Virus record (IMG/VR): IMGVR_UViG_3300030372_004329
Location: 1-45,834 of that record
DNA: 45,834 nt
Reading direction: 5' to 3' (one strand)
DNA from: a virus
Taxonomy: Duplodnaviria; Caudoviricetes
The translations under genes and the position numbers were made by a program. Below the pieces are notes generated by a model that saw nothing but the letters and a program-made list of their open reading frames with translations, had not been told where the DNA came from and did no database searches. Positions 310 to 45,030 of this stretch are shown here, one piece after another; the first letter of the stretch is position 1; every line of letters starts with the position of its first letter.

Positions 310-794
310 TCCTCAATCTGCGCTTTTTCGAGCAGTTCGGTGACGGTCGTCAGTTCGTCTTCGGTCAGCTTCGACCAGTCGTATTTCTGCACCGGCTCGC
401 CCGGCGTGGTCGTCACCGCCTGATGATCGACGAGGCGCGCCACACGCGACACCAGGTGGCCGTCAAGAACCTTCAGAAGTCCGCCTGCAATCAGCCCGTC
501 GTTTATCTCGGCCTCGATCGCTGACCATGTCGTTTTCAGATCCTCACGAGACGCAGCGCGCCGCACGGTGTCCTCACCGCACTGCACGAACGCGGCAAAG
601 CCCGGAACGGTCTTAGGACGCGGTACACGGCGCCCACGCGATCCGATCTCCATCAGGTTATCAGGGTCGGTCGTCCATTCCTTGTAAGCCTGCCAGTGGC
701 CCCACAGGCGGTCTGCGTCCGGGAACACGATATTGTTCGCAGGACGGTTGCGGGGCGGCTTTCTCGGCGCGGGCATCTGCGGCTTGTCGGTCAT
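306..794 (-). CDS. terS: Terminase small subunit, P22 gp3-like DNA packaging protein
   Basis: FPDADRLW..YKEW, RPKTVPGFAAFV and IAGGLLKVLDGHLVSR resemble the gp3 packaging family pattern; C-terminal DWSKLTEDEL is typical of TerS. Confidence 0.65.
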   Translation of the reverse strand: MTDKPQMPAPRKPPRNRPANNIVFPDADRLWGHWQAYKEWTTDPDNLMEIGSRGRRVPRPKTVPGFAAFVQCGEDTVRRAASREDLKTTWSAIEAEINDGLIAGGLLKVLDGHLVSRVARLVDHQAVTTTPGEPVQKYDWSKLTEDELTTVTELLEKAQIED

Positions 795-904
795 GTCGGC
801 CTCATCAGTTCAGGTCGGAATATAACGCACAGGAGCGGGACGGGGTAGTGAGTAATCACGCGTATGTGCGGCGCAGGGTCGACTATACGTGACAGCCATT
901 GGCA

Positions 905-1255
905 TGCCGAATAGCGTTAAATAGCGTTAAATTTACTAAGGGCACCTTTAATTACTAAGGGCACCTTTTTTCGCGAGGTGCCCTCTCTTTTTTCGTAACG
1001 TTTTCAGTGCTTTACACCCATTATTACCCGTTTAAGGGCACCTAGGGCACCTGTTTCGTACGGGGCTATATGAAAAGGATAAACACCCTCCTTCAGTAAT
1101 TTATAGTAATTTAATAAAACGGCATGTTTACGTTTTCGTCTCCTAGTATCTAAAACAGGTGCCCTTAGTGCCCTAGTGCCCTCTGGCCTTGAAAATAAGG
1201 GGTTTGAGAGAGGGCACCTAGATTCCGAAGGTGCCCTTAGGTGCCCTTAGAAAGC
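905..1255. other. Putative replication origin: AT-rich non-coding region with 11 GGGCAC(C)T iterons
   Basis: Iterons start at 940, 959, 976(r), 1036, 1045, 1157(r), 1167(r), 1175(r), 1212, 1229(r), 1239(r); region is immediately downstream of the primase-helicase gene. Confidence 0.75.
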
Positions 1256-1261
1256 CCGTTA

Positions 1262-1299
1262 AAATATAAAACGGGGCGTTAAAATAATAACGCCCCGTT
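1262..1299 (-). terminator. Intrinsic terminator after the primase gene
   Basis: AACGGGGCGTTA-N6-TAACGCCCCGTT hairpin followed by a T-rich run on the - strand. Confidence 0.7.
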
Positions 1300-1316
1300 C
1301 GGTAATTTATAGTAAT

Positions 1317-3839
1317 TTACCGAACGCCGTCAGTATTTTTAACGGGCTCCGGTAATTTACTGAACGGGACGATATTCCCCATCGGTTCCGGTTTTTTGTA
1401 TGGTTCCGCTTTTTTACCGCGTTCCCACCAACGTTGACCGTCAATTTTACGGGCGTGCTGCCAGCCAAGCGCCTTGAGGTAACGACTGATCCGCATCGAC
1501 AGGGCACGGTCGCCACGTTCGTTGCTGAACAATGCTTCTGCGATCTGCCGTGGCGTGACCTCCCCTTGGGTGTATCGCAGCCAGTCGGCCACCCGCGCTT
1601 CGTCCACGTCCTGAATGCGCACGTCGTCCTGCACCTGTTCGAGCGCAGGACACTCCCCCTGGTCGAACCACCAGCGCCACCCGGCCTCGAACAGGACGAC
1701 CGCTTCGGCCCACAGCTGGTCGCGGTCGGACGACAGTCGCGCGATGTCGACGGTCGACGTGACCAGCATCGGCCAGAACCGTCTGCCGCCGGTGGCATCG
1801 GCGAGGTATTCCTCGCCGTTCACGGTGCCTGCGAACACGGTCTGGCGCGGGATGGTCTCGGGCGTGCGACCGAACGGCGGGCGGTAGCGGTCAGTCGGTG
1901 TCGACAGGAAATTCTTGATGTGCTCGACATCCTTACCCTTCATGGATGCCAGTTCTGCGATCTCGGCCACCCACCGTCCGCGCATCCACTGCTTGGCGTC
2001 TTTCTCGGTCATGTCCGGCATGTCTTCACCGAACCAGTCTTCACCGACAAGCGTCTTGATGCCCGTCGATTTCAGCATGCCCTGTTCACCCGACAGCGTG
2101 GGCATTGTGTCCACCTTGCACCCGGGCCGGAAGATGCGGGCGACGGCGCCGATACAGAACCGCTGTCCGGCCGCTGCGAGGTAGTCAGCATGTCCTGGCA
2201 CCTCGGGGTGCGCCTGGCACGGGAAATAGTCCGTGAACAGCGTGTGAAGCCGCTGGACCCCGTCCCAGCGCAGACCTGCCAGGTATTCGCGCACCGGATG
2301 GAACGTCGCGTCCAGCGACGCCGTGGTGATGCCATCGCGGACCGTCACCGGCGAGACCGACGGAAAGATGCCGGACTGCAGGCGACCGGTGACGACCAGT
2401 GTGTCGGCGTCTTTCATCGGACGGCGCGTGCCGTTTTCCGTGACCCATATGTCACCGTCGAATTCCGATCGGGCAAACATGCCGGCGAATTCATCGGACG
2501 ATGTCAGCACGCGCCTGACGTTTTCCAGGTTCGGCACGGGCGACCCGTTCGCATCGTAGATCAGACCCGCCGCTTCCGTCGACGCGCGGCGCCGTTCGGT
2601 CTGATGTATCTTGATCGCTTCACGCAACGCCCCGGTAATGCCCATGCCGCGGATCTCGCGCAGGAGACGGGCGCGGTCGGCTTCGGACAGCTGCGCCGCC
2701 TCGGGCACGATCGACGCGAGATTACCGTTCGGATCGGGCTGCAGGATGTCGACGAGTTGCGTGACGATGTCGACCGGTGCGCTAGAGGGTGCGTTAGACG
2801 GAACCGCAGAGGGCGCGTTAGACGGAACCGTAGAGGGCGCGTCAGAGGGTGCGTTAGACGGAACCGCAGAGGGTGCAGGCATCACCGGGGCGTCTGTCAT
2901 GCCTGCGGGTCGATAGTCGCCCAGCGCGTTCGCCATGGCGGCAATCCGGTGTCGCTGTCCGATTGCCCGAAGATCAGCCCCGCCACGTCCCGCAGCTGCC
3001 GCGATCGTTCCGACGTTGTAGCCGCCCGACCCGGCGCGCAGGCCCGTGGCGTATTTGTCGGTCAGTTCGTCGGGGTCGTAGTCCTTGGATCGTCTCGACC
3101 ATTCGTCTGCAAGGGCAAGTCCGTCGTCGGACCCGTTCGTCGCTTCATGGATTGCCGCCACGATCGAGAACCACCCGTCGTAGCCGTCAGCGTCCGGGTC
3201 GATGTAGGTCAGCAGTTCGCGAATCTCGCCGTGCGACGTTGTGTTCGGATCACGGGGCGGCGCGGGCATCGAAGGGCGTTCTGACGCGGCGCGTGCCGCC
3301 GATAGCAGCCAGTCTGGGGCGTCTGCCACCGGCACGGACCACGGATCGCAACCGGCCTGCCACTGGTAAGCGCGCCCGTCGGGTTTGACGGACGGCGGCG
3401 CGATGACCATGCCGCCGTCGCCCCTGACGTCGATGCCAGGGGCGACGCGGGACGCACTGTTGCGGATGATGTCGCCAGCGTCTGCAGGCCATCGGAAATA
3501 GAAATGCACAGATCCGGAAGGCGAGACGCTGGCGACGGTATGCGGCAAGGTTCCGTGAGTAGTGACCAGCTGCCGCAATGACGCGTGTCCGTCGTGAGTA
3601 TGCCCCTCAGTCGTGTCGACGTCCAGACACCAGATGCCAGAAACCGGACCACATGCGACACCGAAATTAGCGTTCGGGAATTGCTGCCAGTATCGTGTAA
3701 GGGTGTCGGGGTCTGACGTTGCGCCCCAGCGCGTGCCGCCGTGCCTGAGACCTGCAATGTGCGATTTTTTCACTGTTCCGACCGGTGCCGGGAAAACCTG
3801 CCAGCCGAGGCGGGCGAGATTGAGTGCATCGGATGTCAT
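1317..3839 (-). CDS. DNA primase-helicase: Prim-Pol N-domain, PriCT-2 and VirE/VapE-like P-loop helicase
   Basis: GWQVFP, ANFGVACG..LDVD, SGSVHFYF, GIDVRGDGGMVIAPPS; YDGW..W.EWSRRS (PriCT-2); Walker A-like GEQGMLKST; DATGGRRFWP. Confidence 0.9.
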   Translation of the reverse strand: MTSDALNLARLGWQVFPAPVGTVKKSHIAGLRHGGTRWGATSDPDTLTRYWQQFPNANFGVACGPVSGIWCLDVDTTEGHTHDGHASLRQLVTTHGTLPHTVASVSPSGSVHFYFRWPADAGDIIRNSASRVAPGIDVRGDGGMVIAPPSVKPDGRAYQWQAGCDPWSVPVADAPDWLLSAARAASERPSMPAPPRDPNTTSHGEIRELLTYIDPDADGYDGWFSIVAAIHEATNGSDDGLALADEWSRRSKDYDPDELTDKYATGLRAGSGGYNVGTIAAAAGRGGADLRAIGQRHRIAAMANALGDYRPAGMTDAPVMPAPSAVPSNAPSDAPSTVPSNAPSAVPSNAPSSAPVDIVTQLVDILQPDPNGNLASIVPEAAQLSEADRARLLREIRGMGITGALREAIKIHQTERRRASTEAAGLIYDANGSPVPNLENVRRVLTSSDEFAGMFARSEFDGDIWVTENGTRRPMKDADTLVVTGRLQSGIFPSVSPVTVRDGITTASLDATFHPVREYLAGLRWDGVQRLHTLFTDYFPCQAHPEVPGHADYLAAAGQRFCIGAVARIFRPGCKVDTMPTLSGEQGMLKSTGIKTLVGEDWFGEDMPDMTEKDAKQWMRGRWVAEIAELASMKGKDVEHIKNFLSTPTDRYRPPFGRTPETIPRQTVFAGTVNGEEYLADATGGRRFWPMLVTSTVDIARLSSDRDQLWAEAVVLFEAGWRWWFDQGECPALEQVQDDVRIQDVDEARVADWLRYTQGEVTPRQIAEALFSNERGDRALSMRISRYLKALGWQHARKIDGQRWWERGKKAEPYKKPEPMGNIVPFSKLPEPVKNTDGVR
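2781..2878 (-). repeat. In-frame 12/24-bp tandem repeats encoding a PS(A/N/T/D/S)(V/A) linker in the primase
   Basis: Protein reads PSAVPSNAPSDAPSTVPSNAPSAVPSNAPSSAP. Confidence 0.9.
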
Positions 3840-3869
3840 AGGTGCCCCTGCTCAGACGTTGTGCCGGTG

Positions 3870-3898
3870 TTGACGCGCGGCACGATATGTTGTAATCA
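3870..3898 (+). promoter_or_regulatory. Antisense promoter TTGACG-N17-TAATCA
   Basis: Same architecture as other phage promoters here; points against the primase operon. Confidence 0.6.
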
Positions 3899-3903
3899 GG
3901 GGT

Positions 3904-3975
3904 CGAGCTGTTCGGATCTCGGCTCGTCCTCCCTGTCAGACTATAACGCCCCGGTTAATCCCGGGGCGTTTTTTG
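3904..3975 (+). ncRNA. Putative ~70-nt antisense RNA (ctRNA-like) overlapping the primase leader
   Basis: Promoter, then hairpin CGAGCTG/CGGCTCG, then UCCUCCCUG, then an intrinsic terminator; no credible + strand ORF. Confidence 0.55.
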
Positions 3976-3978
3976 TTT
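3945..3978 (+). terminator. Intrinsic terminator
   Basis: AACGCCCCGG-TTAATC-CCGGGGCGTT followed by TTTTGTTT; the U-tract is on the + strand. Confidence 0.8.
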
Positions 3979-4479
3979 GTGACGGCGTAGGGCGGCGCGA
4001 CCCGCTTCGGTGATGGTGATGGTTTGACGGTAGTTGTCCGGGTCTGGTGTACTGAGAACCACAAAACCTTTGTCGTGAAGAGAATATATGTCGGACACGA
4101 TCTTGGTAGGGAATATGGCATCGAAATTCCGAGTCCCTAATGGTGCCAGAAGTTCCAAGCACCAAACTTCATTCGCCGTCAGTTCCGGTTCATCGTCGGA
4201 CGTCAGCCCACGGCCCGCACATTCACCGGCCAGTGCTGCATAAGCCGCCGCGTCCGTGAAGCTGTCCGCCCGAAACGCGCCCTGGTTCGACCTGACGATC
4301 TTCAGGATTTCCATAAACTGCCAGCCTTGCTGCTCGGTCAGGCTGTGTCCGGTGATCGCGTTGAACGCTGCCACGGTTTTACCCATGGACCGTTCACCTT
4401 CGGGAGCGTCATAGGTTTTCGCCCGGTCGGCAAGCTCCGCAGCGGCTTGTGTCAGGATTTCATCGGCGCGGTGTGTCAT
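3955..4479 (-). CDS. DUF6378-like protein with C-terminal winged-helix-like extension
   Basis: A.EIL..A...ADR..TYD.PEGERSM..WQFM..LKIVR..DS..DAAAYAAL pattern; ATG 4479 overlaps the upstream stop. Confidence 0.65.
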   Translation of the reverse strand: MTHRADEILTQAAAELADRAKTYDAPEGERSMGKTVAAFNAITGHSLTEQQGWQFMEILKIVRSNQGAFRADSFTDAAAYAALAGECAGRGLTSDDEPELTANEVWCLELLAPLGTRNFDAIFPTKIVSDIYSLHDKGFVVLSTPDPDNYRQTITITEAGRAALRRHKQKTPRD

Positions 4480-4703
4480 GCCATCGCCTCCGATACCGCG
4501 CCGCGCAACTCGGCGACGGTCGGGAAATAGTGCTTCACCGTCCAGCGAGACGTCGGCGCTTCGCACGCATCTGCCACGCTGTCATAGGTCGCGTCATAGA
4601 CGCCGTGTTCGCCCGCTTTTGCCACGCTAACGCCCGCCCGAACGATCATGTCGCGGCGTTCGTCGGGCGTCAGCCGGGCACGACTGGTCGGTTTTTCGGT
4701 CAT
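4476..4703 (-). CDS. Small TetR-like HTH DNA-binding protein
   Basis: RLTPDERRDMIV..T...VA..C..SRWTVKHYFPT resembles the TetR N-terminal HTH; GAGGA RBS. Confidence 0.65.
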   Translation of the reverse strand: MTEKPTSRARLTPDERRDMIVRAGVSVAKAGEHGVYDATYDSVADACEAPTSRWTVKHYFPTVAELRGAVSEAMA

Positions 4704-4858
4704 CGCTGGTTCCTCAGATAGATGCGCATCGCGCTAAGGGTTGCAAGAAACGGGCGGTCACGTCTCGGGATGCGTTCGAGCGTGTCAACGGCGGCACGAA
4801 CCGCTTCCGGTCCCGCCGCCTCGCACATCCGATAAAGTGACTGTTGCGCCCAGGTCAT
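4700..4858 (-). CDS. Hypothetical 52-aa protein (MTWAQQSLYRMCEAAGPE...)
   Basis: Read manually; ATGA overlap with the next gene; ATG 6 nt after a predicted -10 box. Confidence 0.55.
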   Translation of the reverse strand: MTWAQQSLYRMCEAAGPEAVRAAVDTLERIPRRDRPFLATLSAMRIYLRNQR

Positions 4859-4864
4859 GCCTGA

Positions 4865-4893
4865 TAATTACCCGTTGTTGCCGCCTGTGTAAA
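4865..4893 (-). promoter_or_regulatory. Promoter TTTACA-N17-TAATTA with GCGGCAAC/CGGGTAAT boxes
   Basis: Member of the repeated promoter family; the -10 box overlaps the MTase stop codon. Confidence 0.55.
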
Positions 4894-6169
4894 GAGAGGA
4901 CGGAACGGGCATGACCGGTCGAGGTGCGGAAGGTGCTGGCATGACCGGTCGAGGCGTAACGGCTGCGATTCGTGCGCGGGCGATCTCGGAATACCCCTGG
5001 TCGAGTTCGATGCCGATGAACCGAAAGCCTTCCAGAACTGCCCCGCGCCCGGTCGATCCCGACCCGGTAAACGGGTCCAGAACGGTGCCGCCCGGCGGTG
5101 TCACGAGGCGGCACAGATAGCGCATCAGGTCGGTCGGCTTTACCGTCGGATGATTGTTCGCAGTCGGCTTCCAGCGCCCGTACGGGTTGCCGTCCTCGCC
5201 AGCAGCGGCACGGTCGGTGTGGTTCGGTCGGAATTCTGACGCGGCGGTCGGTTTCGGTTCGTGATCGGACAACCCGTCGTTGCGATCGGCTTTCGACGCC
5301 TTGGCGCAATAGAAAAACCGCGCAGCATCGCCGAACAGGTCCGTCGCGTCAGACGACCCGTCGTGGATTAGGTTCGCGGGGAAGCGTCCAAGTTTTTCGG
5401 CGCGTTCCACGTTCGATCTGACTTTTGCAGCCTGTTTTTCAAGAGCATTTGCGTCGTCCATCCATGGTCTGCGCCATCCTTCGTTTGTAAACTTTCCGGA
5501 CGTTTCGGCCTTGGTGCCGCCCCCTCCCAGTTTGTCATCCGTCGCCACACGACACCCGTCGATATTCACCGCCCCTGTCCCGTGTTTCAGGACGTTCGCC
5601 GCGACCGTACCGTCCAGAGGTTTTCGGGCGACGGTGATCGGTTCCAGCGCGGGTTTTAGAGCGGTGCCCCATCCCTGCCAGCGCTGGGCCTCTGGTGTTG
5701 CGGGTGCTGTGATGTCAGTTGACAATGTACCGGATCGTTCGCCGCCATACGCGTCGTCGAACCCGGACCGTTGGTTGGACCCATCTTTTGACATACCGGG
5801 TCGACCTAGCTTGGTTCCCACCACCTCACGCACCGCGCCAGCCGCCTTATCGATCCCCTTCGACACATCATGCGATTTCGGGAACCCCGACCCGTAAACC
5901 CATGCAATCATGTCGCGGATCTCGAAACCGGCGTCCTCGATCGCGCAGGCCATGCGGTGTTGCGTTCGAGTGCCGGCAAATGCCAGCAGATGACCGCCGG
6001 GCTTCAAGACGCGGAAAACCTCGCGCCAGTATTCCGGACCCGGGACGGCTTTGTCCCATCCCTTGCCCATGAACGACAGACCGTAAGGCGGGTCCGTGAC
6101 GACGGAATCAACCGAATTTTCCGCTATGTCTTGCATCACTTCGATGCAGTTTCCGGTTATTACCGTCAT
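4868..6169 (-). CDS. Orphan DNA methyltransferase (N6-A/N4-C, beta class)
   Basis: DPPY catalytic motif at the N-terminus; HPTVKP and VLDPFTGSGSTG SAM-binding motif at the C-terminus. Confidence 0.92.
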   Translation of the reverse strand: MTVITGNCIEVMQDIAENSVDSVVTDPPYGLSFMGKGWDKAVPGPEYWREVFRVLKPGGHLLAFAGTRTQHRMACAIEDAGFEIRDMIAWVYGSGFPKSHDVSKGIDKAAGAVREVVGTKLGRPGMSKDGSNQRSGFDDAYGGERSGTLSTDITAPATPEAQRWQGWGTALKPALEPITVARKPLDGTVAANVLKHGTGAVNIDGCRVATDDKLGGGGTKAETSGKFTNEGWRRPWMDDANALEKQAAKVRSNVERAEKLGRFPANLIHDGSSDATDLFGDAARFFYCAKASKADRNDGLSDHEPKPTAASEFRPNHTDRAAAGEDGNPYGRWKPTANNHPTVKPTDLMRYLCRLVTPPGGTVLDPFTGSGSTGRGAVLEGFRFIGIELDQGYSEIARARIAAVTPRPVMPAPSAPRPVMPVPSSLYTGGNNG

Positions 6170-7815: not shown

Positions 7816-7821
7816 GGCGTG

Positions 7822-7989
7822 TTACGTGCGCAGAATGCTGGCGATGAGTTGACGACGACGTTCGATGTCTTCGAAACATCCGCGAGCAATTTCAGTCAGA
7901 CACATGATGCGCGCCTGATCGGCCCGTGCCTGAAGCTTGGCGATCATGTCGAGTTCTTCGTTGACCTTGCGTTTCGTGTTCTTATCCAT
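7822..7989 (-). CDS. Hypothetical protein (MDKNTKRK...)
   Basis: ACAGGAG RBS; first gene of the leftward operon. Confidence 0.6.
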   Translation of the reverse strand: MDKNTKRKVNEELDMIAKLQARADQARIMCLTEIARGCFEDIERRRQLIASILRT

Positions 7990-8020
7990 CGTCACGTCTC
8001 CTGTCAGTATTTGCCGTTCT

Positions 8021-8092
8021 GGGATACACGATCCGTTATTTTGCTGCAAGGTAATAAAAGGCATTGACGGGCAATAACGTCACGCGTAGAAC
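8021..8092. promoter_or_regulatory. Divergent promoter pair: - strand TTGCAG-N17-TATCCC (8049-8021), + strand TTGACG-N17-TAGAAC (8064-8092)
   Basis: Lies at the divergence point of the two replication operons; both spacers contain AATAACG. Confidence 0.6.
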
Positions 8093-8126
8093 GGTCGGTG
8101 CAACACTGGACAGGAGAGACCTGACA

Positions 8127-8282: not shown

Positions 8283-8300
8283 CCCGAGAGGATACCGAAA

Positions 8301-8993
8301 ATGACCACCCTCACCGTAAACCTGCTGGACGACACGTCGGTTAATACCGCCTTGCGCGTTCTCGGCAACCTGACGCAGATGCCGTCGGAATCCCCGCGAA
8401 CCATGGAAATGACTGTCACGGACCCGCAGGCAGTCGCGCCCGAACCGGCGCCGACCGGCAACGAATCGGCGCCGACCGGCAACGAATCGGCGCCGACCGG
8501 CAACGAACCGGACACATCGCAGCCCGACACCAACGGACTAATGTGGAACGAAGCATTTTGCAGCAAGCCCGCCAGCCTGAACGCCGACGGTACATGGCGT
8601 GCTAAGCGCGGCAAGAAAGACGATTACGACGCCGCTGTCATTGCCGCGATCGCGCAGTCGATGCCTGAAGCGAAATCCCCGACCACACAGAACGAGACCG
8701 AACCGTCGCCAACGGCAACCATGCCGACGATGCCCGCCGCATCCATGCCCGCCGCGCCTGCACCGACGACCCCCGCCGCGCCCATCGAATACGACGCGAT
8801 GGCCCGTCGCTTCATGGCGATGATGGAATCTGGCGCGATTCAGGACTACAACGCCGTTTATCAGGCGCTGCAGATCGACTACCAGCAACTGGAAACGAAC
8901 CAGACCATGATTGCCGCACTGTGGCACTACATGGACGCCCTCGAATCCGGCGAGACCCACGACGCCGCGGTTCGCCACGCGCTGGGGTCGTGA
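8301..8993 (+). CDS. Hypothetical protein with Pro/Thr/Ala-rich linkers
   Basis: GAGG RBS; central LNADGTWRAKRG segment. Confidence 0.8.
   Translation: MTTLTVNLLDDTSVNTALRVLGNLTQMPSESPRTMEMTVTDPQAVAPEPAPTGNESAPTGNESAPTGNEPDTSQPDTNGLMWNEAFCSKPASLNADGTWRAKRGKKDDYDAAVIAAIAQSMPEAKSPTTQNETEPSPTATMPTMPAASMPAAPAPTTPAAPIEYDAMARRFMAMMESGAIQDYNAVYQALQIDYQQLETNQTMIAALWHYMDALESGETHDAAVRHALGS
8446..8510 (+). repeat. 21-bp tandem repeat x3 (APTGNES)
   Basis: CGGCGCCGACCGGCAACGAA(T) repeated in frame. Confidence 0.9.
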
Positions 8994-10350: not shown

Positions 10351-10630
10351 CGATACGCCCGGGGTAGGGCACAACGACACCGTCGGTGCGGATCGGCTTC
10401 GGTCATTCATCGAACGTGTCGAACGTCTGGAAGAGGAAAAACAGGAGATTGCCGACCAGATCAAGGAAGTTTTTGCAGAGATCAAGGGCACCGGATACGA
10501 CGTCACGGCTGTCCGTGCGATCCTGAAACTTCGCAAACAAGACCCGGACAAGCTGGCCGAACAAGAGGCGGTCCTTGACCTGTATAAAGAGGCGTTGGAC
10601 ATGCCCGTCATGCCGCGCCCGACACGCTGA
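10343..10630 (+). CDS. gapR: GapR / DUF2312 (UPF0335) nucleoid-associated DNA-binding protein
   Basis: LRSFIERVERLEEEKQEIADQIKEVFAEIKGTGYD..LRK..E.EAVLDLYKEAL signature. Confidence 0.9.
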   Translation: MSDDTPGVGHNDTVGADRLRSFIERVERLEEEKQEIADQIKEVFAEIKGTGYDVTAVRAILKLRKQDPDKLAEQEAVLDLYKEALDMPVMPRPTR

Positions 10631-10658
10631 AACCCAAAGCCTGACAGGAGAAAACCAG

Positions 10659-11609
10659 ATGGCACAAGCACCGAAAGAATACTTCACGACGCCGGTCGGC
10701 CGCATCATCAGCGGCGACCCCTGGACGAAACAGACCACCGACGCGAACAACCGTCCGATTCCGGAAGAAAAGCAAAACTACTGGTTTGCACTGGCGGTCG
10801 AAAAGAACGCCCCGGGCATGAACGAACTGCTGGGCACGCTGCACAAGGCGGCATCGGCAGGATACGCCCACGCGCAGAACGTCATGGCGCAGGTCAACCA
10901 GGGGCTTGCCGCAACGGCGTTCAGCTGGAAGGTCGCCGACGGCGACGAACAGCGCCAGAACCCGACGACAGGGGCGATGGAAAACCGTTGGGCACACGGC
11001 GCCGGCTGTTGGGTTCTGAAGTTCTCGACGACTTTGCCGATCCGTCCGGCGAAATACCAGGGCAACGTTCCGACCGACTGCGCGACGTCCGAGATCAAGC
11101 GCGGGTATTACGTCCAGGTCGCAGGCTCGACCAGCGCGAACGGCAACACCGACCACACCGCCGGCATCTACCTGAACCCCCAGACCGTTTGCCTTGTCGG
11201 TTACGGTGAAGAAATCGTCGGTGGTCCGTCGCTCGACCAGCAGTTCACCGGCGGCCCGGGCGGTTATATGCCCGCCGGCATGACGCAGGCACCGCAGCCC
11301 CCGACCGGTGCACCCGGTGCCATGGGTCAGCCGCCCCAGCAGCCGCCGATGGGAAACCCGCAGGCTACCCCGGCACCGCAGCAGCCGCCTGCCTATGGCA
11401 GCGGGATGCCGTCGCCCAGCGCGCCGAATACGGCGACTGGATACCCTGGTGACCCGATGGGAAACGCACCGCAGCAGCCGACGCCCGCCGGCGGACCCTC
11501 GATGCCGCAGGGTGCCGGTGCGGGAATGCCGCAGCCGGGCGGAAATGCCCCTGACGGACAGCAGCCGCCGATGTATGGCGGCTATATGACCCCGCCGAAC
11601 GGTCAGTAA
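10659..11609 (+). CDS. ssDNA-binding protein (DUF2815-like) with long Pro/Gln/Gly-rich tail
   Basis: FTTPVGRI, FSWKVADGD, EIKRGYYVQV and GIYLN motifs; position between nuclease and polymerase. Confidence 0.7.
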   Translation: MAQAPKEYFTTPVGRIISGDPWTKQTTDANNRPIPEEKQNYWFALAVEKNAPGMNELLGTLHKAASAGYAHAQNVMAQVNQGLAATAFSWKVADGDEQRQNPTTGAMENRWAHGAGCWVLKFSTTLPIRPAKYQGNVPTDCATSEIKRGYYVQVAGSTSANGNTDHTAGIYLNPQTVCLVGYGEEIVGGPSLDQQFTGGPGGYMPAGMTQAPQPPTGAPGAMGQPPQQPPMGNPQATPAPQQPPAYGSGMPSPSAPNTATGYPGDPMGNAPQQPTPAGGPSMPQGAGAGMPQPGGNAPDGQQPPMYGGYMTPPNGQ

Positions 11610-11618
11610 GCGATAATG

Positions 11619-11645: not shown

Positions 11646-11660
11646 GGACAGGAGGGTGTG

Positions 11661-31641: not shown

Positions 31642-31965
31642 TCAGTCCTTGTCGAGTTCTTCCAGGCGCGCTTTCGCCGCCTTAACCTCAGGTTTGCGGC
31701 CGTCGCCGGACGCCATCATCGTCAGACGGTCGCGATCTTCGGACGTCTCGATTTCTTCGACGGTCATCTGCGTCGGGTCTGCACCAGGCATCTTCGGCGC
31801 TTCAGGCTGACCCTGCGCGACGATCTTGCCGGTCGCGATCCGGTGCTTGACGCCTTTGTTCGCGAGGAATTTCTTCGCGATCTCATCGGGCACGGTGTTC
31901 GGACCGGGCATCAGTTCGACACCTTCGGCACCGTAGATCCGTGCCATGTTGTTCATGATTTGCAT
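31642..31965 (-). CDS. Hypothetical virion-associated protein
   Basis: GGAG RBS; position in the head module. Confidence 0.65.
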   Translation of the reverse strand: MQIMNNMARIYGAEGVELMPGPNTVPDEIAKKFLANKGVKHRIATGKIVAQGQPEAPKMPGADPTQMTVEEIETSEDRDRLTMMASGDGRKPEVKAAKARLEELDKD

Positions 31966-36399: not shown

Positions 36400-37735
36400 C
36401 GTCTGGTTCCTGCGGTGCGCTGGGCACCGGCATCACGGGCGGGTCGGTTTCGTTTTCTGGCGAAGTCTTAGAACGTTCCAGCAATTCCCATTTGCCAGAC
36501 GACCCCAGACGTTCGCGAATCTCGTCAGCGTCGAGCGCGCCGGACTGCCAGTAAATTTCAGCCGTTTCCGCTTCGGTCTTGTCGGTGGCGGCCTGTTCTT
36601 CATCCGTAGGCGTGTATAGCGATGCCCATTTGATCTGCCATTGGTCCGGCTCGCCGCCGCGCGCAAGATACACGTCGCGCACCATATCCTCGGCGACGTG
36701 ACCGACCTGCGCGTTCCGTTCCGATTCCAGCATCCCGTACCAGGATCGCGTTTCGCCGGACCCGCTCGAATTCATACCGGCAGGCGACCGTCCGAACAGT
36801 TCGGTCATCGGCATCCGCGCCGCGCTGCAAAGCGCCTCGGCGTGACGATCCATCAGATCCGCAACGCCCGCGACACTAGACGCGGATTTCATGTAATCTT
36901 CGCCGTCTGCGTCGATCACCATGCCGTTGATGATCGACCGCGACAGGTCCAGCATCGACAGACGTTTCCGGACAAGATCGTCCTGTCCGTTCGCCAACAT
37001 GTCGGCCAGGTCTTTGACCTTCAGAACCGACTGGACGAAATCACGTAGAATGTTCGAGGTGTAGCCGTAATTTGCGCCGACCCTCATCAGATACGAAAAC
37101 ACACCCTGTAATGACGACGCGCCCCATCCGTTATTGCGATCCCGAACGCGCTTCGGCAACCGCATGCCGTCAATGATTGACAATCGCGAATGGTGAATGC
37201 GATACGGCACGGCGCCGACCGATCCCGGCTGGATGCGGTAAATCTCCGGCTTGCCGTATTGTGGTGACATGGCGTCGATGTTCAGATCAGCCGTCGTCCA
37301 GGTAATGTCATATCGGTCGTGTACACGATAGCCAATCACGCGACGGACCCTTTCAGGGCGCAGCGGGTCTTCGAGGTTCCCACCGTCATCAATCAGCCTG
37401 ACGATCCCGGCGCCACCGTAGAGCCGCGCCCACACGTAAGCCTCGGTCAGCGCCGCCTGTGCCTTCAGGGTTTCGAGATCCCCGACCACGTCTTCACCGT
37501 CATCACCTTCGACGGTGAACCAGCGTCGCAATGCTTCCTCTGCCGGTTTCTCGACAATCTTCCGACCGATGCCGTCACCGTAAAACACCGACTCGACGGC
37601 GTACTGCGTCATCAGCGATTCGGCGCGATATTGCGTGTGCGACGCGACGTCTTTTTGCGTCCCGAGACCGGACATGACGTTAATCATTCCGTCCGTTCGG
37701 TCCGCGCTGGGCGCTGGCATGGTCGGTTTTTGCAT
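36383..37735 (-). CDS. Portal protein (DUF1073 family)
   Basis: N.MSGLGT, WARLYGG, YGKP..Y, IH.SR, P.T.LFG.SP.G.N. Confidence 0.88.
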   Translation of the reverse strand: MQKPTMPAPSADRTDGMINVMSGLGTQKDVASHTQYRAESLMTQYAVESVFYGDGIGRKIVEKPAEEALRRWFTVEGDDGEDVVGDLETLKAQAALTEAYVWARLYGGAGIVRLIDDGGNLEDPLRPERVRRVIGYRVHDRYDITWTTADLNIDAMSPQYGKPEIYRIQPGSVGAVPYRIHHSRLSIIDGMRLPKRVRDRNNGWGASSLQGVFSYLMRVGANYGYTSNILRDFVQSVLKVKDLADMLANGQDDLVRKRLSMLDLSRSIINGMVIDADGEDYMKSASSVAGVADLMDRHAEALCSAARMPMTELFGRSPAGMNSSGSGETRSWYGMLESERNAQVGHVAEDMVRDVYLARGGEPDQWQIKWASLYTPTDEEQAATDKTEAETAEIYWQSGALDADEIRERLGSSGKWELLERSKTSPENETDPPVMPVPSAPQEPDDGDET

Positions 37736-39677: not shown

Positions 39678-40019
39678 TCATGTCGGCTCCTGCTCTTTGA
39701 GGTCATCGAAAACGAGTTCCCACGCTCCGACGCGGATGGTCGCATCCACCCGGTCCAGCACCTCGCGGGCCTTCTCGCGATGACCCCAATCCACGATCAC
39801 GGTTCGCTTCTCGAGGTCTCCGTGTCCGCAGCACGATCCGTAGGTCCAGACGTGCGCGTCCCAGAGCGCCTGAACTGCGTCAGCGATGCACGCGTCCACG
39901 CAGATCGTTGGCCGGGCATTCTGAAACAGAGCCATTGCCCAGTCCGGGCATTGCAGCACCCGCTCCTGATCCGTCTGCCATGGCCTCGGTTGGTTGTAGC
40001 TGATGCACTTGCAGGTCAT
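39678..40019 (-). CDS. Hypothetical Cys-rich protein
   Basis: CVDACIAD.V..LW...V.T..SCCGH; GGAG RBS. Confidence 0.7.
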   Translation of the reverse strand: MTCKCISYNQPRPWQTDQERVLQCPDWAMALFQNARPTICVDACIADAVQALWDAHVWTYGSCCGHGDLEKRTVIVDWGHREKAREVLDRVDATIRVGAWELVFDDLKEQEPT

Positions 40020-40497
40020 CTGTTCCCTCTCCTGCTCTCCGGCTCCTTGAATGTGTCCATGCTGAATTTGACCAGGATCGCTGCGATGATTGCCGATGCG
40101 AGCATTTCCCCCGCGCCGGACAGCGGCACAGGCGAGGGGGTGACGATGCGAGCATTTCCCCCGCGCCGGACAGCGGCACAGGCGAGGGGGTGACGATATC
40201 GGGATCAACCGAGACCGTCGTGGTAAAGTGGGGCGTCAGGCTGTCTCCGAAGTCGGAGCAAAGCCGTCCGTCAAGCACCGGGATCAGCTCGTCGCCGTTG
40301 CAGATGTAAGGGATGAGCCAATTTGGAAGGGCATTGACGGGCTCCGGCTGGGAAGCCACGTCGATCTGCCCGCATGGGATCACCGCAGCCTGAAATTTGC
40401 CGTCCATGCACTGATTGCCCGGCCTGCTGAACGACACGGTGCCGTCTGGATGGTGAACCTCGACCAGGGGCTCCGTATCGTGGGGCGCGGTAGTCAT
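40016..40497 (-). pseudogene. Gene frameshifted by a 50-bp tandem duplication; the intact form has a VPLPA-CTERM-like tail
   Basis: Removing one copy gives a 143-aa ORF ending PSPVPLSGAGEMLASAIIAAILVKF...NR with an ATGA overlap to the next gene. Confidence 0.65.
40094..40197. repeat. Perfect 50-bp tandem duplication
   Basis: 40094-40143 equals 40144-40193, with CGAT microhomology at the junctions. Confidence 0.95.
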
Positions 40498-40498
40498 G

Positions 40499-40714
40499 TC
40501 AGTCTTCCCTCTGGGATTGCAGGGCGCGCTTGATTGCGCACGGCTCGTCATCGGCCTCTGGCCCGCCGTCGAACATGGCAAAAAGTGCAGACGAAAGCCG
40601 CTGCGCCTCTCTGTGCTCTAGGTCTAGATTCCCGATGGCTCGCGACAGCATCCATCGGGTGTAGGCGTCCTCGACAGCTTCAAGCTGCTCTAGGGCGGTA
40701 TCGGCGTCACCCAT
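40499..40714 (-). CDS. Hypothetical protein
   Basis: GGAGG RBS. Confidence 0.6.
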   Translation of the reverse strand: MGDADTALEQLEAVEDAYTRWMLSRAIGNLDLEHREAQRLSSALFAMFDGGPEADDEPCAIKRALQSQRED

Positions 40715-41048
40715 CGGAGCCTCCCTGGTCGGAGAGGGCGCGGAGGCCTGCGCGGAAGACAAACACCCATTCTTCGGTGCCTTCTGTGTCCGCTTCACCG
40801 TCCATCGCCGCTTGAATGAGGTCGTCAAGCTCGCTTTCTTCATTGAGTGCATTCAGCAGCACCTGCGCCGCCTCCTGCACCGTGGGCTGGCGGGCCATCA
40901 CGTTCTGCGCGGCGTCGGTGCGGACGTATTCTTTGGCGTTTGGGTTATCGCAATCGAACCTGTCCCATTCCCCGCAATCATTTGTGTTGCCAGTTTCGTC
41001 CGGCGCCGCCCAAATTCGCTCAGGCATTTCCTTCTCGCGCTCAGTCAT
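40707..41048 (-). CDS. Hypothetical protein
   Basis: AGGAG RBS; MPERIWA...EYVRTD motif. Confidence 0.7.
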   Translation of the reverse strand: MTEREKEMPERIWAAPDETGNTNDCGEWDRFDCDNPNAKEYVRTDAAQNVMARQPTVQEAAQVLLNALNEESELDDLIQAAMDGEADTEGTEEWVFVFRAGLRALSDQGGSDG

Positions 41049-41409
41049 GGCTCTGCTCCTGTGGAGCCTTCGGCCACGGCCCGCCGCCGGAAATATCCGG
41101 CTTGCCATGGGGGCCCTGAACTTGAGGCGCGAATGGCAGGCTCTTGCTCTCGGCGCCGCAGTGTGAATAGCCCTCGCCAATAGCCAGCGCGTTCGCGATC
41201 ATCCAGCAAACCGATCCCGAATGCTCACGCGGCACGTCAATTTCAAAGCGGCGGTCAAGCGTTATCGTGATCTGGTCGCTGCGCTCGTAGACCATCAGGC
41301 GCGGTATCTCGCGGCCATCCACAACGGCGGTGTATCCAGCGATGCGGACGCCGAACGATACGACACCCGCTTCAGGGTTATGAAGGTTTGTCACGTTGTC
41401 AGTCATCAT
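41041..41409 (-). CDS. Hypothetical protein
   Basis: GGAGG RBS; overlaps both neighbours by a few bases. Confidence 0.7.
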   Translation of the reverse strand: MMTDNVTNLHNPEAGVVSFGVRIAGYTAVVDGREIPRLMVYERSDQITITLDRRFEIDVPREHSGSVCWMIANALAIGEGYSHCGAESKSLPFAPQVQGPHGKPDISGGGPWPKAPQEQSHD

Positions 41410-42136
41410 TCATATCCTCCACGGCTTGCGCTGCCATAGTCATTAGATCGGCGGCTAGATTTGCGGCGGTATCGGGCGGCATGACGTACCACTGCCATTC
41501 GCCATCATCGGCCATGGCGCTGAGCATGACTTTTCCGTCGCCCTCGGTGGAGACCTCGAAGCGTCCGCCACCCATGTTGCTGTCTGTGGCCTCGCCGTCG
41601 GCGTAGCTCTCCGTCTTGGCTATTTCGATCTGGTCGCGCAAATCGGCAAGCTCCGCTTCGTAAGCGGTAAACCCGGTAACTCGAAGCTCCTTCTCCGCGT
41701 CATAGAGGTCCCGGCGAATATATCTCGTAGGTGCGCCTACGAAGCCTCCGGGCTCAGCTTGGGCGTAAATGTCTATGGTCTGCGCACTGACATCCTCATC
41801 AGCTACAGCCCAGATGTCGTCTGGCATTCTGTCAATCATTGACTGTATCCCCACGTGGTCGCTGCTGCCGAGACCTCGCTTCGGGCTTGTGACCTGCGGA
41901 TGCATTCCGTTGACCCGCTTGCGGTATTGCTCGGTAACATCGGCCAGCCGGTCTGCCCGCGCCTCCGCTTCCTCCGCACGGCGGGTGGCGGCGGCAAGAT
42001 CGGATAGCAGCCGCTCGATCTCGTCAGTCATCAACCGGACTTCCTCGTCATTCAGGACGTGACCGCGCTGCATGACCTCTCGCGGGTACTCCACCCAGTA
42101 GGTCTTCGGGTTTTCGAGATCATCGTGCATTGTCAC
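41399..42136 (-). CDS. Hypothetical mosaic protein with coiled coil
   Basis: GGAGG RBS; contains MPDDIWA...YIRRD, similar to the motif in 40707-41048. Confidence 0.7.
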   Translation of the reverse strand: MTMHDDLENPKTYWVEYPREVMQRGHVLNDEEVRLMTDEIERLLSDLAAATRRAEEAEARADRLADVTEQYRKRVNGMHPQVTSPKRGLGSSDHVGIQSMIDRMPDDIWAVADEDVSAQTIDIYAQAEPGGFVGAPTRYIRRDLYDAEKELRVTGFTAYEAELADLRDQIEIAKTESYADGEATDSNMGGGRFEVSTEGDGKVMLSAMADDGEWQWYVMPPDTAANLAADLMTMAAQAVEDMNDD

Positions 42137-42324
42137 TTCCTCCGTTTTGCCATCATGCGCTGGCGGGATTTCCGCAGCGTGTCGTGACTCTTGGCATGTA
42201 TGCCGCAGTAGTCAGACCCGGGCAGCGCGACGTTCAGGCATGGCGCCCGGTCGTTGGACTTGATCGCCTTGCACTTGGGGATGTTTTCGCCAAGAAGCCA
42301 GCTTTTGGTGGGATCATCTATCAT
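42133..42324 (-). CDS. Small Cys/His (Zn-finger-like) protein
   Basis: C.A......C.........C..H pattern. Confidence 0.6.
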   Translation of the reverse strand: MIDDPTKSWLLGENIPKCKAIKSNDRAPCLNVALPGSDYCGIHAKSHDTLRKSRQRMMAKRRK

Positions 42325-42345
42325 GCTCGACCCGCCGCTGCATCA

Positions 42346-42444
42346 TCATCCGACGTTCCCGTCGCCGAGGTCGTCGGCGTAGTAGAACATGAAGCCCAGC
42401 GTGCCGATAATCAGCGGACCCAGGGCGAGGTAGGTGATGAGCAT
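42346..42444 (-). CDS. 32-aa single-TM peptide (MLITYLALGPLIIGTLGFMFYY...)
   Basis: Read manually; fills an operon gap. Confidence 0.45.
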   Translation of the reverse strand: MLITYLALGPLIIGTLGFMFYYADDLGDGNVG

Positions 42445-42456
42445 GTCGGCGGCCCT

Positions 42457-42819
42457 TTATGTTGAGGGGGTTTCGCCGTAGCGGATACCTGCCAACTGAT
42501 TGCTCAGTTCCAGGCGGGCGACGACGTGCGGGAAGTGTCCGCGGAGAACGTCACAGTCGATCTGAAATTCCCCACCGTCCGAAATCATGTCGGAAAGCGG
42601 GGGCACGCCATCCCAGCAGTCGAAGTCCGTCACCTTCGTGTAGTGGTGAGACGCCGCATTGCAGTCCAGGTGCGAGCGCAGCGTGTAGATCGTGTCGTCG
42701 GCTTTCTCTGTGAAGAAATAGTGCCGCGCGCCTGCGGGGATCATGTGGTAGCAGTCAAAGCACTGGTGCGCCTTCCGCCCCACGCGCTCGCCGCGGGCAA
42801 GTTCCTCCGGATATGACAT
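42457..42819 (-). CDS. Hypothetical protein with CxxC...HxxC
   Basis: RKAHQCFDC...I..G..H and HLDC; AAGGA RBS. Confidence 0.7.
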   Translation of the reverse strand: MSYPEELARGERVGRKAHQCFDCYHMIPAGARHYFFTEKADDTIYTLRSHLDCNAASHHYTKVTDFDCWDGVPPLSDMISDGGEFQIDCDVLRGHFPHVVARLELSNQLAGIRYGETPST

Positions 42820-42860
42820 TGGCCGGTCCTTTCTCGGTTAGCGAATGTGAAGGCCGCGCG

Positions 42861-43019
42861 CTACCAGATCGCAGCGCCGAATCTCTTCTGCTCCCTGCCC
42901 ATGGCGTCGGAAATTCCGACGCCATCCTTCTCATCGTCATCAAGAACGGGTTCGTCCGGCGCTTCGCCTTGACTAATTGCCTCCTGCATCTGTTGTTCTT
43001 CATCCGGTGCGTGTGGCAT
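42861..43019 (-). CDS. Possible 52-aa acidic protein (MPHAPDEEQQ...)
   Basis: Read manually; reading frame uncertain. Confidence 0.35.
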   Translation of the reverse strand: MPHAPDEEQQMQEAISQGEAPDEPVLDDDEKDGVGISDAMGREQKRFGAAIW

Positions 43020-43031
43020 GATCTGGCCCTT

Positions 43032-43151
43032 TCAAAACAGTTGTACGGAAACGGCAATCGCCAGCCCAATGCAGACGATGATGGCCTCAATAATCAGCGC
43101 GACAATGATGCCGCGCGCCGGGCCGAGGGGGTCGTCTTCGGGTGTGGGCAT
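43032..43151 (-). CDS. 39-aa single-TM peptide (MPTPEDDPLGPARGIIVALII...)
   Basis: AAGGA RBS; hydrophobic helix. Confidence 0.55.
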   Translation of the reverse strand: MPTPEDDPLGPARGIIVALIIEAIIVCIGLAIAVSVQLF

Positions 43152-43163
43152 GGGGCGTCCTTT

Positions 43164-43526
43164 CTATGCTTCGGTCATCGCCGCGAGCGCGCGGCGTTCG
43201 TATTCTGCTGCCTTGAGGCATCGCGCCCGGTTCTTTTCGGTTGTCGCTGCGTCTGCCTTTTCCTTCCATGCGCTGATCGCTTCGCGCCGGCGCTGGATGC
43301 GATAATCAATATCCCGCTGCGCGAAGGCGACTGCCTCGGCGCGCGTCTTGAACGTGACGCCGCGAAAATGCTTCGTGACTTCGCTAGGCCCACTGTAAAA
43401 CTTAGTTTCGGCCTGAATTTGAAACGTCTTGGACCGCTGGCCGCATATTTCTGTCCGCCCTGACGCGTGGCGGATCATCGGCTTATATTCCCCGAAAGAC
43501 TTGATCGCGGTGGGTTTCACAGACAT
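43164..43526 (-). CDS. Hypothetical basic protein
   Basis: AGGAGG RBS. Confidence 0.7.
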   Translation of the reverse strand: MSVKPTAIKSFGEYKPMIRHASGRTEICGQRSKTFQIQAETKFYSGPSEVTKHFRGVTFKTRAEAVAFAQRDIDYRIQRRREAISAWKEKADAATTEKNRARCLKAAEYERRALAAMTEA

Positions 43527-43539
43527 ATTCTCACCCTCC

Positions 43540-43719
43540 TTAGTTGGACTGGCCGAGGATTTCGCGAGCCTTGCCGCGCACGAAGTCAGCGTAGCCGCCC
43601 ATGTCCTCGATTTCGTTTGCCACTTGCCGCAAAGCCTCTTTGTCCTCGGGTGTCAAATCGTATCCAAAGCCCACCTTCGACAAGCGCCGCAGCACCGATA
43701 CCAATTCATCACGTTCCAT
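43540..43719 (-). CDS. Hypothetical protein (MERDELVSVL...)
   Basis: AGGAG RBS. Confidence 0.6.
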   Translation of the reverse strand: MERDELVSVLRRLSKVGFGYDLTPEDKEALRQVANEIEDMGGYADFVRGKAREILGQSN

Positions 43720-43729
43720 GCCTTCGCTC

Positions 43730-43891
43730 CTATTCAGACTCGGACAGACGGTATATCGTGCTGATCGCTGCGGAAGCCATCCGTTGATATCGGTCGTGGT
43801 CTGAAACCGCCTCGATCCAGTCGGCCCGCGAGGCGTTGCCGGTGTCGGCGGTCCACAGCGCGAACGCCACCTCATCAATTTCATCAAGCAT
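43730..43891 (-). CDS. Hypothetical 53-aa protein (MLDEIDEVAFALW...)
   Basis: Read manually; fills an operon gap. Confidence 0.55.
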   Translation of the reverse strand: MLDEIDEVAFALWTADTGNASRADWIEAVSDHDRYQRMASAAISTIYRLSESE

Positions 43892-43892
43892 A

Positions 43893-44012
43893 TCACCATC
43901 CTATGTAAATCCCCAAGGCAACGGCACAGATCGCCAGCAGTCCCAGGATGTCGACTATCGTGTGGCGGATCTTTCCGCGGTTCGGTTTGCGGGGCGGGTG
44001 TTTCCAGGTCAT
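43893..44012 (-). CDS. 39-aa single-TM peptide, probably leaderless (MTWKHPPRKPNRGK...)
   Basis: ATG 6 nt after the -10 box; basic N-terminus plus TM helix. Confidence 0.55.
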   Translation of the reverse strand: MTWKHPPRKPNRGKIRHTIVDILGLLAICAVALGIYIGW

Positions 44013-44018
44013 ATTTTA

Positions 44019-44047
44019 TTATTACCCACTGTTCCCCGAACCGTCAA
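44019..44047 (-). promoter_or_regulatory. Promoter TTGACG-N17-TAATAA with CGGGGAAC/TGGGTAAT boxes
   Basis: Member of the repeated promoter family; the -35 box overlaps the upstream TGA. Confidence 0.7.
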
Positions 44048-44256
44048 GGAATATCGCGCTTGTTCCGGTTCTTTTTCTTCCGGCACTGACAGGGGTGTTT
44101 CGCATCTTCAGACCGAATGCGTCGGACCAGTCCACACCCCGCACCTTTCGACATTGCGAAACGACGAGACGCCTCGGCGATACCATGACGCGCCGCTGAT
44201 TTCAGGAACAGCAATTCACGTTCGTCGTCCGCCCGGGTCGTGATTCGCCTGCTCAT
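44044..44256 (-). CDS. Small basic HTH-like protein
   Basis: IAEASRRFAMSKGAGCGLVRRI; ATGA overlap. Confidence 0.55.
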   Translation of the reverse strand: MSRRITTRADDERELLFLKSAARHGIAEASRRFAMSKGAGCGLVRRIRSEDAKHPCQCRKKKNRNKRDIP

Positions 44257-44522
44257 GTGACCGACTCCGAAACGGCACGGCCCGCGGCGGTGTGTTCCAA
44301 GTAGAACTGGAACGATGCGTCCTGCGCTTCCTCGCGCGTGTCGCACGGGCGGCTGAACGATTTCACGCGGTTGTAGGTCAGCACCGCCACGAACTGTCCG
44401 GTGTCACACGACTGGAACAGTTCGATGTCGGGGTTCAGGCGCCGCCGCGGTGGTCCGGACGTCTCGCGTGATGACGGTTCGGCCGCGGCAGGCGCTGGCA
44501 TGGTCGGGGCGGGCATCTTCAT
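44253..44522 (-). CDS. Hypothetical protein with N-terminal MPAPTMPAP
   Basis: GAGGA RBS; ATGA overlaps. Confidence 0.65.
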   Translation of the reverse strand: MKMPAPTMPAPAAAEPSSRETSGPPRRRLNPDIELFQSCDTGQFVAVLTYNRVKSFSRPCDTREEAQDASFQFYLEHTAAGRAVSESVT

Positions 44523-44680
44523 GGGTCAAGATCCTCGATGATTTGTCCGAGTTCGTTGCAGTGACGATCGGACAGTTTTTCGGCAAGTCGGGTGAGTTTC
44601 GGCACGGCCACCGCGATGCGCCGCTCGGCGCTAGGCGAATCAGGTTGGGGCATCACGGGACGCGGCATGGATGGGGTCAT
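44519..44680 (-). CDS. Hypothetical protein with N-terminal PSMPRPVMPQP
   Basis: ATGA overlaps on both sides. Confidence 0.6.
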   Translation of the reverse strand: MTPSMPRPVMPQPDSPSAERRIAVAVPKLTRLAEKLSDRHCNELGQIIEDLDP

Positions 44681-45030
44681 GTGTTGCTCACCGCCGCCCA
44701 TAAGTCGTCAGAGATCGACTCAAGAGAGGTTTGAACCGTGCCGCTCATGTCGTCATCGGCGACCAATTTATCGACACGGGCTGCAGCCGATTCGATGACC
44801 CCGCGCAGATACGTCATGTCTTTTTCAAGGTCTTCGTACTCGTCAGCAGGAACCGTATACTGATCGCTCGTGCACGCTCGCAATTCGTCGAGTTCGTCCC
44901 ATACACGTTGCAGTTCGGGATATTTTTCACGCGCAGCGTCGGTTGTGTCCGACTGGTATTCGATTAGCGCAGCGTCGAAGTCGAACCGTTCAGACGCTGG
45001 TCGGGGCATCACGGGACGTGGCATCTTCAT
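44677..45030 (-). CDS. Hypothetical acidic protein with N-terminal MPRPVMPRP
   Basis: GGAGG RBS. Confidence 0.7.
   Translation of the reverse strand: MKMPRPVMPRPASERFDFDAALIEYQSDTTDAAREKYPELQRVWDELDELRACTSDQYTVPADEYEDLEKDMTYLRGVIESAAARVDKLVADDDMSGTVQTSLESISDDLWAAVSNT

Follow-up and report, generated by a model that had tools for sequence, protein, structure and literature searches.

The window analyzed here is a whole virus record (IMGVR_UViG_3300030372_004329, Caudoviricetes; 45,834 bases), which is classed as complete with direct terminal repeats. The short peptide P-x-M-P-x-P recurs at the termini and in the linkers of unrelated proteins of this phage, and comparison of sequences indicates that it is a selected, lineage-evolving tag tied to the phage replication module. 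Since the motif is proline-rich, methionine-specific, independent of position, and gained by newly acquired DNA-acting genes, it was interpreted as a probable ligand for one reader. In the reading that we favor (probability about 0.6), it would be a polyproline-type short linear motif that came from linkers of SSB, the protein that binds single-stranded DNA, and of the conserved protein g8301, and that docks DNA-acting proteins, here including TerS and the portal, onto a reader associated with the replication module.

The gene set consisted of 64 curated open reading frames (ORFs) with 13,661 aa. The strict motif P-x-M-P-x-P was found 14 times in the six frames; 12 copies lay in frame within 8 of the 64 ORFs, and two were in noncoding frames (2632 +, 33447 −). 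An earlier note on this DNA had listed copies in TerS, primase, a methyltransferase (MTase), GapR, the portal, and three accessory genes, as well as looser ones in g8301 and the SSB tail. All of the listed copies were found, the looser ones were confirmed, and Pfam/PHROG searches agreed with the gene labels. The comparison with composition-matched shuffles that the note had proposed came out strongly in favor of enrichment: in 1000 shuffles, the mean number of copies was 0.09 when whole proteins were shuffled and 0.30, 0.44, and 0.59 when the shuffling was confined to local windows of 40, 20, and 12 residues, with a maximum of 3. In a scan of all gapped motifs with four fixed residues, P-x-M-P-x-P ranked first with a −log10 p of 15.6, compared with null maxima of 4.9–6.1 from six shuffles. 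The central residue was also specific, since the 15 occurrences of P-x-X-P-x-P in the window had M at X in 12 cases, A in two, and Q in one, with no other residue.

The motif was rare elsewhere. A sample of a Rhodobacterales genome (720 called proteins from 800 kb of 4.8 Mb) contained one copy in 241,462 aa, approximately 200-fold sparser than in the window. In control phages whose replication module is of this kind, no gapped motif rose above the phage's own null in the portions covered, which were the first 50 of 52 kb of HMSP1-Susan, the first 50 of 69 kb of 7-7-1, and the whole of BcepB1A. When viral contigs were scanned at the DNA level for the extended motif, 103 stretches were returned. 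Among the 80 that were fetched, 72 had one copy, seven had two, and one had four, and none of these was related to the window except for one tail-fibre match. These matches were read as chance singletons.

The earlier note had placed the conservation at the level of the peptide, and the codons bear this out. At the three Pro codons, the third-position identity across copies was 0.26, whereas codon usage predicts 0.45; in the several copies with a following Ser, this residue is encoded by both TCN and AGC. Because the wobble bases are free, the copies are peptide-level repeats and not a DNA repeat. The DNA upstream of the tagged starts had nothing in common except ribosome-binding sites. A DNA repeat or recombination boundary element was consequently rejected on the basis of the wobble identity, the in-frame placement of 12 of the 14 copies, and the unshared flanking DNA.

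The copies were concentrated at the ends of proteins, with ten of the 12 strict copies located no more than 20 residues from a terminus, while 22% of all residue positions lie within 30 residues of one. The remaining two were in the inter-domain linkers of the primase. Arg or Lys preceded seven of the 12 copies, and S-A followed four. In line with the earlier note, which had seen no motif in capsid, sheath, tube, or baseplate proteins, no strict copy was present in the capsid, tail, baseplate, or lysis proteins of the window. The loose motif occurred in 8 of 15 DNA-acting proteins versus 2 of 24 virion or lysis proteins (Fisher p =.003, with classes defined post hoc and the portal classed as DNA-acting). 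The head morphogenesis protein (35539–36399, −) has an N-terminal near-miss, P-K-M-A-R-P. The motif-bearing features are listed in Table 1.

Table 1. Features of the window that carry the strict motif (P-x-M-P-x-P) or looser M-P units
Feature	Positions	Strand	Remarks
TerS N-terminus, strict PQMPAP	765..782	−	gene 306-794, phrog_606
Primase linker Prim-Pol/PriCT-2, strict PSMPAP	3258..3275	−	Pfam domains
Primase linker PriCT-2/VapE helicase domain, strict PVMPAP	2871..2888	−	Pfam domains
MTase C-terminus, two strict copies	4901..4948 (4948-4931, 4918-4901)	−	
g8301, conserved protein, M-P units in Pro-rich linker before C-terminal domain	8301..8993	+	phrog_11133 E=3e-4
GapR C-terminus, strict PVMPRP	10604..10621	+	gene 10343-10630
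gp2.5-like SSB, Pro-rich tail, three loose copies	10659..11609	+	phrog_7011; DUF2815-type PDB matches 4jg2, 4klk
Small gene after major capsid gene, loose PKMPGA in linker	31642..31965	−	
Portal C-terminal tail, strict PVMPVP then SAP	36422..36439	−	
Portal N-terminus, strict PTMPAP	37709..37726	−	
Accessory gene g44253, starts with tandem M-P-x-P units, strict copy at 44507	44253..44522	−	
53-aa accessory gene, two strict copies (44674, 44659)	44519..44680	−	ATGA overlap on both sides
Acidic helical accessory gene, starts with tandem M-P-R-P units, strict copy at 45015	44677..45030	−	

The replication module of the window comprises a primase-helicase, an SF2 helicase, g8301, a DUF2800 exonuclease, GapR, the gp2.5-like SSB, a family-B polymerase, and a VRR-NUC protein. 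A clade of 14 viral loci with polymerases 61–70% identical to that of the window was identified, and their SSB groups with the window SSB at 100/99 support. In this clade, the loose motif (M-P-x-P or P-x-M-P) was found in the tail of SSB, the linker of g8301, the two linkers of the primase, VRR-NUC, and a clamp-like protein. Other proteins carried it at their start, namely the homologue of g44253, a methyltransferase of the C5 type, and a ParB-fused methyltransferase. Beyond SSB and g8301, 37 tagged proteins were counted in 16 clade loci versus 8.5 expected, the loci being close relatives rather than independent counts. The corresponding numbers for distant loci were 4 (7.7 expected) in 14 loci and 10 (12.2 expected) in 19, and the motif had not spread to other proteins in the 14 distant loci whose SSB tails are just as rich in MP. 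The window is the extreme case of motif use in its clade.

The virion genes behaved differently. The complete phage G013 (47.7 kb, 64% GC) has the virion genes from TerS to the fibre in common with the window, with identities of 75% for the major capsid protein, 70% for the sheath, and 54% for the portal. It had no match to the window replication genes, a search of all six frames gave no strict copy, and neither its TerS nor its portal was tagged. G010 and L110–L115, which have the same head module, agreed with G013 in lacking the motif. Since the motif accompanies the replication module but not the same virion module, the tag follows the former, and a link of the motif to the head module was rejected by these phages. 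It is most likely that TerS and the portal gained the tag after the virion module had joined this replication module.

Homologues were aligned, which the earlier note had suggested as a way to recognize a lineage-specific appendage. TerS homologues (65–69% identical) retained the strict motif in two of two cases, while the neighboring residues were variable; the TerS alignment had no match when searched against viral contigs. In contrast, among the 120 portal sequences listed of 142 found, the strict motif occurred only in the window's own (0 of 119 others), the nearest homologue, P0002 (60%), having KMPRP at its N-terminus. The best 150 of 7,039 GapR homologues contained no strict motif; the GapR proteins of clade relatives end in MPTGP. 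The tails of MTases related to the window MTase carried no copies. The GapR of 7-7-1 (L123:11656-11961) ends in IPMPSGKK, and in two phages of the clade the small gene that follows the capsid gene (G006:9033-9212 and G001:28208-28387) ends in PVMPS[GA]KK.

Gain and retention were also seen in other proteins of the clade. The primases of relatives had QMPAP or PVMPAP at the Prim-Pol/PriCT-2 linker and MPSP or MPGP at the PriCT-2/VapE linker. Seven clade C5-MTases started with M-P-[RL]-P, whereas eight of eight distant homologues began directly at the YYNE block, and the ParB-fused MTase of the clade started with M-P-A-P or M-P-T-A-P. P-x-M-P was present in the VRR-NUC of 13 of 14 clade relatives, compared with any MP in 2 of 46 distant linkers. 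In nine of 11 clade contigs, the clamp-like protein carried a tag. The homologues of g44253 started with MMPAPRP and those of the accessory gene 44677..45030 with MQMP. No homologue of the 53-aa accessory gene was found among the fetched loci, and the loose copy of the small gene 31642..31965 was not seen in the homologues examined from L110–L113. An atlas search suggested, as a lead only, an AP2/Arm-like DNA-binding fold for g44253, with a score below the 0.9 bar.

The SSB tail and the g8301 linker are likely to be the ancestral home of the motif, as judged from the wider family, in which both proteins have long Pro-rich linkers. Across 32 loci, Pro followed 51% of the Met residues in SSB tails and 63% of those in g8301 linkers, and the M-P densities of the two were correlated (rho 0.56). 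The number of M-P units per SSB tail was 4–8 in the clade and reached 11 elsewhere. The window SSB ends in a Pro/Gly tail in which the acidic IPF tip is missing, and among the tails examined only those of L002, L009, L013, L073, and L099 ended in IPF. Closely related SSBs differed at this end, with an acidic host-like IPF tip in L002, L009, L013, and L099 and GGMPGA in L003–L005, L008, and L010. The SSB tails of L018, L026, L034, L124, L135, L140, and L146 ended in a small domain of the type Y-x-x-x-Q-L-x-x-x-G-W-T, with which the g8301 homologue of L135 also ended; this domain, for which no name was found, may substitute for the M-P units in other branches. The g8301 alignment gave nothing credible against PDB and Pfam, and its atlas leads were all below the 0.9 bar. 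The closest named g8301 homologue, P0122 (55%), is filed under 'Skeletonema virus LDF-2015a', which suggests that this record is a bacteriophage from an algal culture.

In the proposed mechanism, [R/K]-P-x-M-P-x-P, with the core M-P-x-P, would act as a docking motif in disordered termini and linkers. It would form a polyproline-II strand, with Met and Pro side chains entering a hydrophobic groove of one folded reader, and this reader would belong to, or be recruited by, the replication module (SF2 helicase, g8301, DUF2800 exonuclease, gp2.5-like SSB, and family-B polymerase). Starting from M-P units presumed ancestral in the phage family, where they lie in the tail of SSB and the linker of g8301, the primase-helicase, resolvase, methyltransferases, GapR, and clamp-like protein of the Rhodobacterales-phage clade would have gained copies repeatedly, so that the tagged proteins would be recruited to replicating phage DNA. 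TerS and the portal would have gained the tag in this lineage too, thereby coupling packaging to the replication site. The phage-wide tag on DNA-transaction proteins that the earlier note had envisaged is thus supported by conservation, repeated gain on new genes, and linkage to the replication module, while its common hub is a prediction. Our guess is that the reader could be an untagged core enzyme or a folded domain of SSB (OB fold) or g8301, which we do not rank; the polymerase, helicase, and exonuclease are candidates because these core proteins have no tag in a linker or tail. A phage clamp as the hub was rejected for this phage, since the window has no clamp and the clade clamp-like protein is itself tagged. 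The complete genome had no match to phrog_947 or phrog_3007, nor a tblastn match at E ≤ 0.01 to the clamp-like protein of relatives. A bolder version, which we regard as rather doubtful, would posit a clamp-independent phage-encoded hub that reads a eukaryote-style proline-rich motif, possibly g8301 through its small Trp/His domain, within a replication-packaging compartment that new genes join via a six-residue tag.

Several results weigh against the docking model. The co-variation of M-P content between SSB and g8301 was not robust to sister pairing, with 6 concordant, 4 discordant, and 5 tied pairs (p =.38). Relatives keep the motif in VRR-NUC, but the window has lost it there. Genome-wide, the loose motif was above the null only in G006 (6.5 vs. 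≤4.7) and not clearly in G001 or G002. The clade relatives have unrelated virion modules with untagged TerS and portal, so that the link to packaging is lineage-specific. No SH3, WW, or GYF-type domain was detected in 17 core and small proteins (Pfam, E ≤ 1). Finally, PxxP motifs in the E. coli SSB linker had been considered as partner-binding elements and were experimentally rejected (PMC10164576). That PxxP-in-linker model is the nearest idea in sequence, and its rejection counsels caution.

The strongest of the alternatives, although unlikely, is that the reader is a general host protein such as DnaK, the host beta-clamp, or RNA polymerase, the motif being a handle for hijacking the host. 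Pro-rich peptides bind DnaK, and this explanation would suit a window that encodes no clamp, relatives whose clamp-like protein is itself tagged, and the similar IPMPS tail of the 7-7-1 GapR. However, host proteins are almost devoid of the motif in the genome sample described above, in distant family members on Rhodobacterales-labelled contigs (L137, L155) the motif has not spread to proteins other than SSB and g8301, and it is unlike the beta-clamp consensus Q-phi-x-[L/M]-[F/L] (PMC11139829).

Somewhat less probable is a model with no folded reader, in which Met-Pro 'stickers' would draw oligomeric clients into a condensate of SSB and g8301 on phage DNA. Many clients of the tag are oligomers, and the SSB tails have multiple M-P units. 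E. coli SSB condensates, which depend on the linker, concentrate partners (PMC7584906). Nevertheless, the fixed spacing, the strict Met, and the conserved single copies in TerS fit a pocket better.

We consider it improbable, to a slightly greater degree, that the motif is a neutral linker vocabulary, that is, M-P-rich Pro/Ala linkers spread without function by slippage, gene-start fusion, and short homologous exchanges. The high share of Met followed by Pro in SSB tails and g8301 linkers would be expected under such a process, as would the tandem duplication in the MTase and three accessory genes and the several tagged starts in relatives that read ATG ATG CCN. Against it, even the 12-residue local shuffles did not approach the observed count, wobble identity was at or below chance with differing upstream DNA, equally MP-rich SSB tails of distant loci had not been accompanied by spread, and the motif was kept in TerS homologues.

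The earlier note had also offered a proteolysis or modification signal, which would here be a degron, a processing site, or glycosylation or phosphorylation of the following Ser; this reading is disfavored. The copies are terminal and exposed, and four have a P-S-A extension, yet N-termini, C-termini, and internal linkers are all used, including both ends of the portal; most copies lack the Ser, and no modifying enzyme or protease tracks with the motif, the untagged G013 having the same head protease. This alternative is very unlikely. A capsid-targeting sequence (CTS) like that of T4 is hardly credible, because the motif, in spite of its presence on the portal and its place at the beginning of three small accessory proteins, is missing from the phages with the same head module, is found in relatives with unrelated head modules, and is internal in primase and SSB.

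The phage probably infects Rhodobacterales, because it has GapR, a GTA-type holin, and a polymerase that is 66% identical to one on a contig binned into a Rhodobacterales metagenome-assembled genome. Its virion module is of the myovirus type according to Pfam/PHROG searches. No cultured close relative was found, the best phage matches being 32% for the portal, 45% for the polymerase, and 41% for the SSB, with none for g8301. Positions 1–11,700 were covered by contigs from marine metagenome runs of two studies, in long pieces without differences; run X3 may share the window's source sample, and X4 covers this region only piecewise. A metagenome scan matched two contigs, both identical to the window, and no others.

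Further features of the genome were recorded. A pentapeptide-repeat gene (1–253 plus 45411–45834, −) bridges both ends of the record, which starts and stops within a 15-nt array, so both the number of repeats and the label 'direct terminal repeat' may have arisen from assembly. TerS and TerL genes are usually adjacent in phages; here about 20 small accessory genes lie between them (39681–45834 and 1–306), in a region that also contains a near-perfect 50-nt tandem duplication (40091–40190). A 34-nt inverted repeat (955–988/1207–1240, 218 nt spacing) in the noncoding gap between primase and TerS is a candidate origin or packaging site. Related intergenic repeats at 283–316, 14028–14063, 44004–44047, and 4850–4882 resemble a common sigma-70-type promoter (TTGAC ... 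TAATAA). A 27-nt hairpin-like sequence, identical at 11619–11645 after the SSB gene and at 32252–32278 after the major capsid gene, is probably a shared terminator. An Acb2/Tad1-hairpin anti-defence gene (31979–32230, −; PF24729, E = 2e-16) is inserted immediately after the major capsid gene, and a regulator with a helix-turn-helix-like N-terminal part and a Trans_reg_C winged helix (34915–35421, +) lies on the opposite strand within the head module. The DUF1073 portal homologue P0032 is named 'anti-CBASS protein Acb1' at its source, which is probably a misannotation from portal-Acb1 fusions.

Networks built on short motifs are textbook knowledge in eukaryotes, and in phages they are known mainly as clamp-binding motifs and acidic SSB tails. 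The phage of the window, which is small and has no clamp, appears to run such a network with a motif rich in proline, and clients have been gained and lost according to the comparative data, the packaging machinery included. The six-residue tag and five candidate readers would provide a handle on how replication, methylation, and packaging are brought together on the DNA of a small phage. If the reader were a new proline-binding domain, it could also serve as a portable recruitment tool.

The earlier note knew of no described system of this kind. For the motif itself this held, as no description of it or of the phage was found in open-access text; hub-and-short-motif networks of DNA metabolism, such as beta-clamp motifs and the SSB tip, are on the contrary well described. 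The sliding-clamp hub (beta-clamp, T4 gp45) is similar in that many unrelated proteins acting on DNA carry one short linear motif in a disordered tail or loop (PMC11139829), as several such proteins do here. The window motif is nevertheless made of Pro and Met and does not match the clamp consensus, with or without one spacer, as given in that paper, and the clamp-like protein of relatives is a tagged client. The E. coli SSB hub also has DNA-metabolism enzymes as clients, but here the clients share the motif of the SSB tail rather than bind to it, and most clade SSBs have no acidic IPF tip. The SH3 ligands have a P-x-x-P core in a disordered segment in common with the window motif, and the Abl/Fyn ligand 3BP-1 contains the P-T-M-P tetrapeptide also found here (PMC13671646), so that such a strand could be read by a small domain. 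No SH3, WW, or GYF domain was found in the 17 proteins searched. The likeness does not amount to homology. The T4 CTS is likewise a short peptide with which unrelated small phage proteins begin (PMC9026906), whereas the window motif is also C-terminal and internal and follows the replication module, not the head module. The same source describes how T4 packaging is coupled to replication and transcription, the link to replication being made via gp17-gp55-gp45 and gp17-gp32 contacts; in the phage of the window, the portal and TerS themselves bear the tag.

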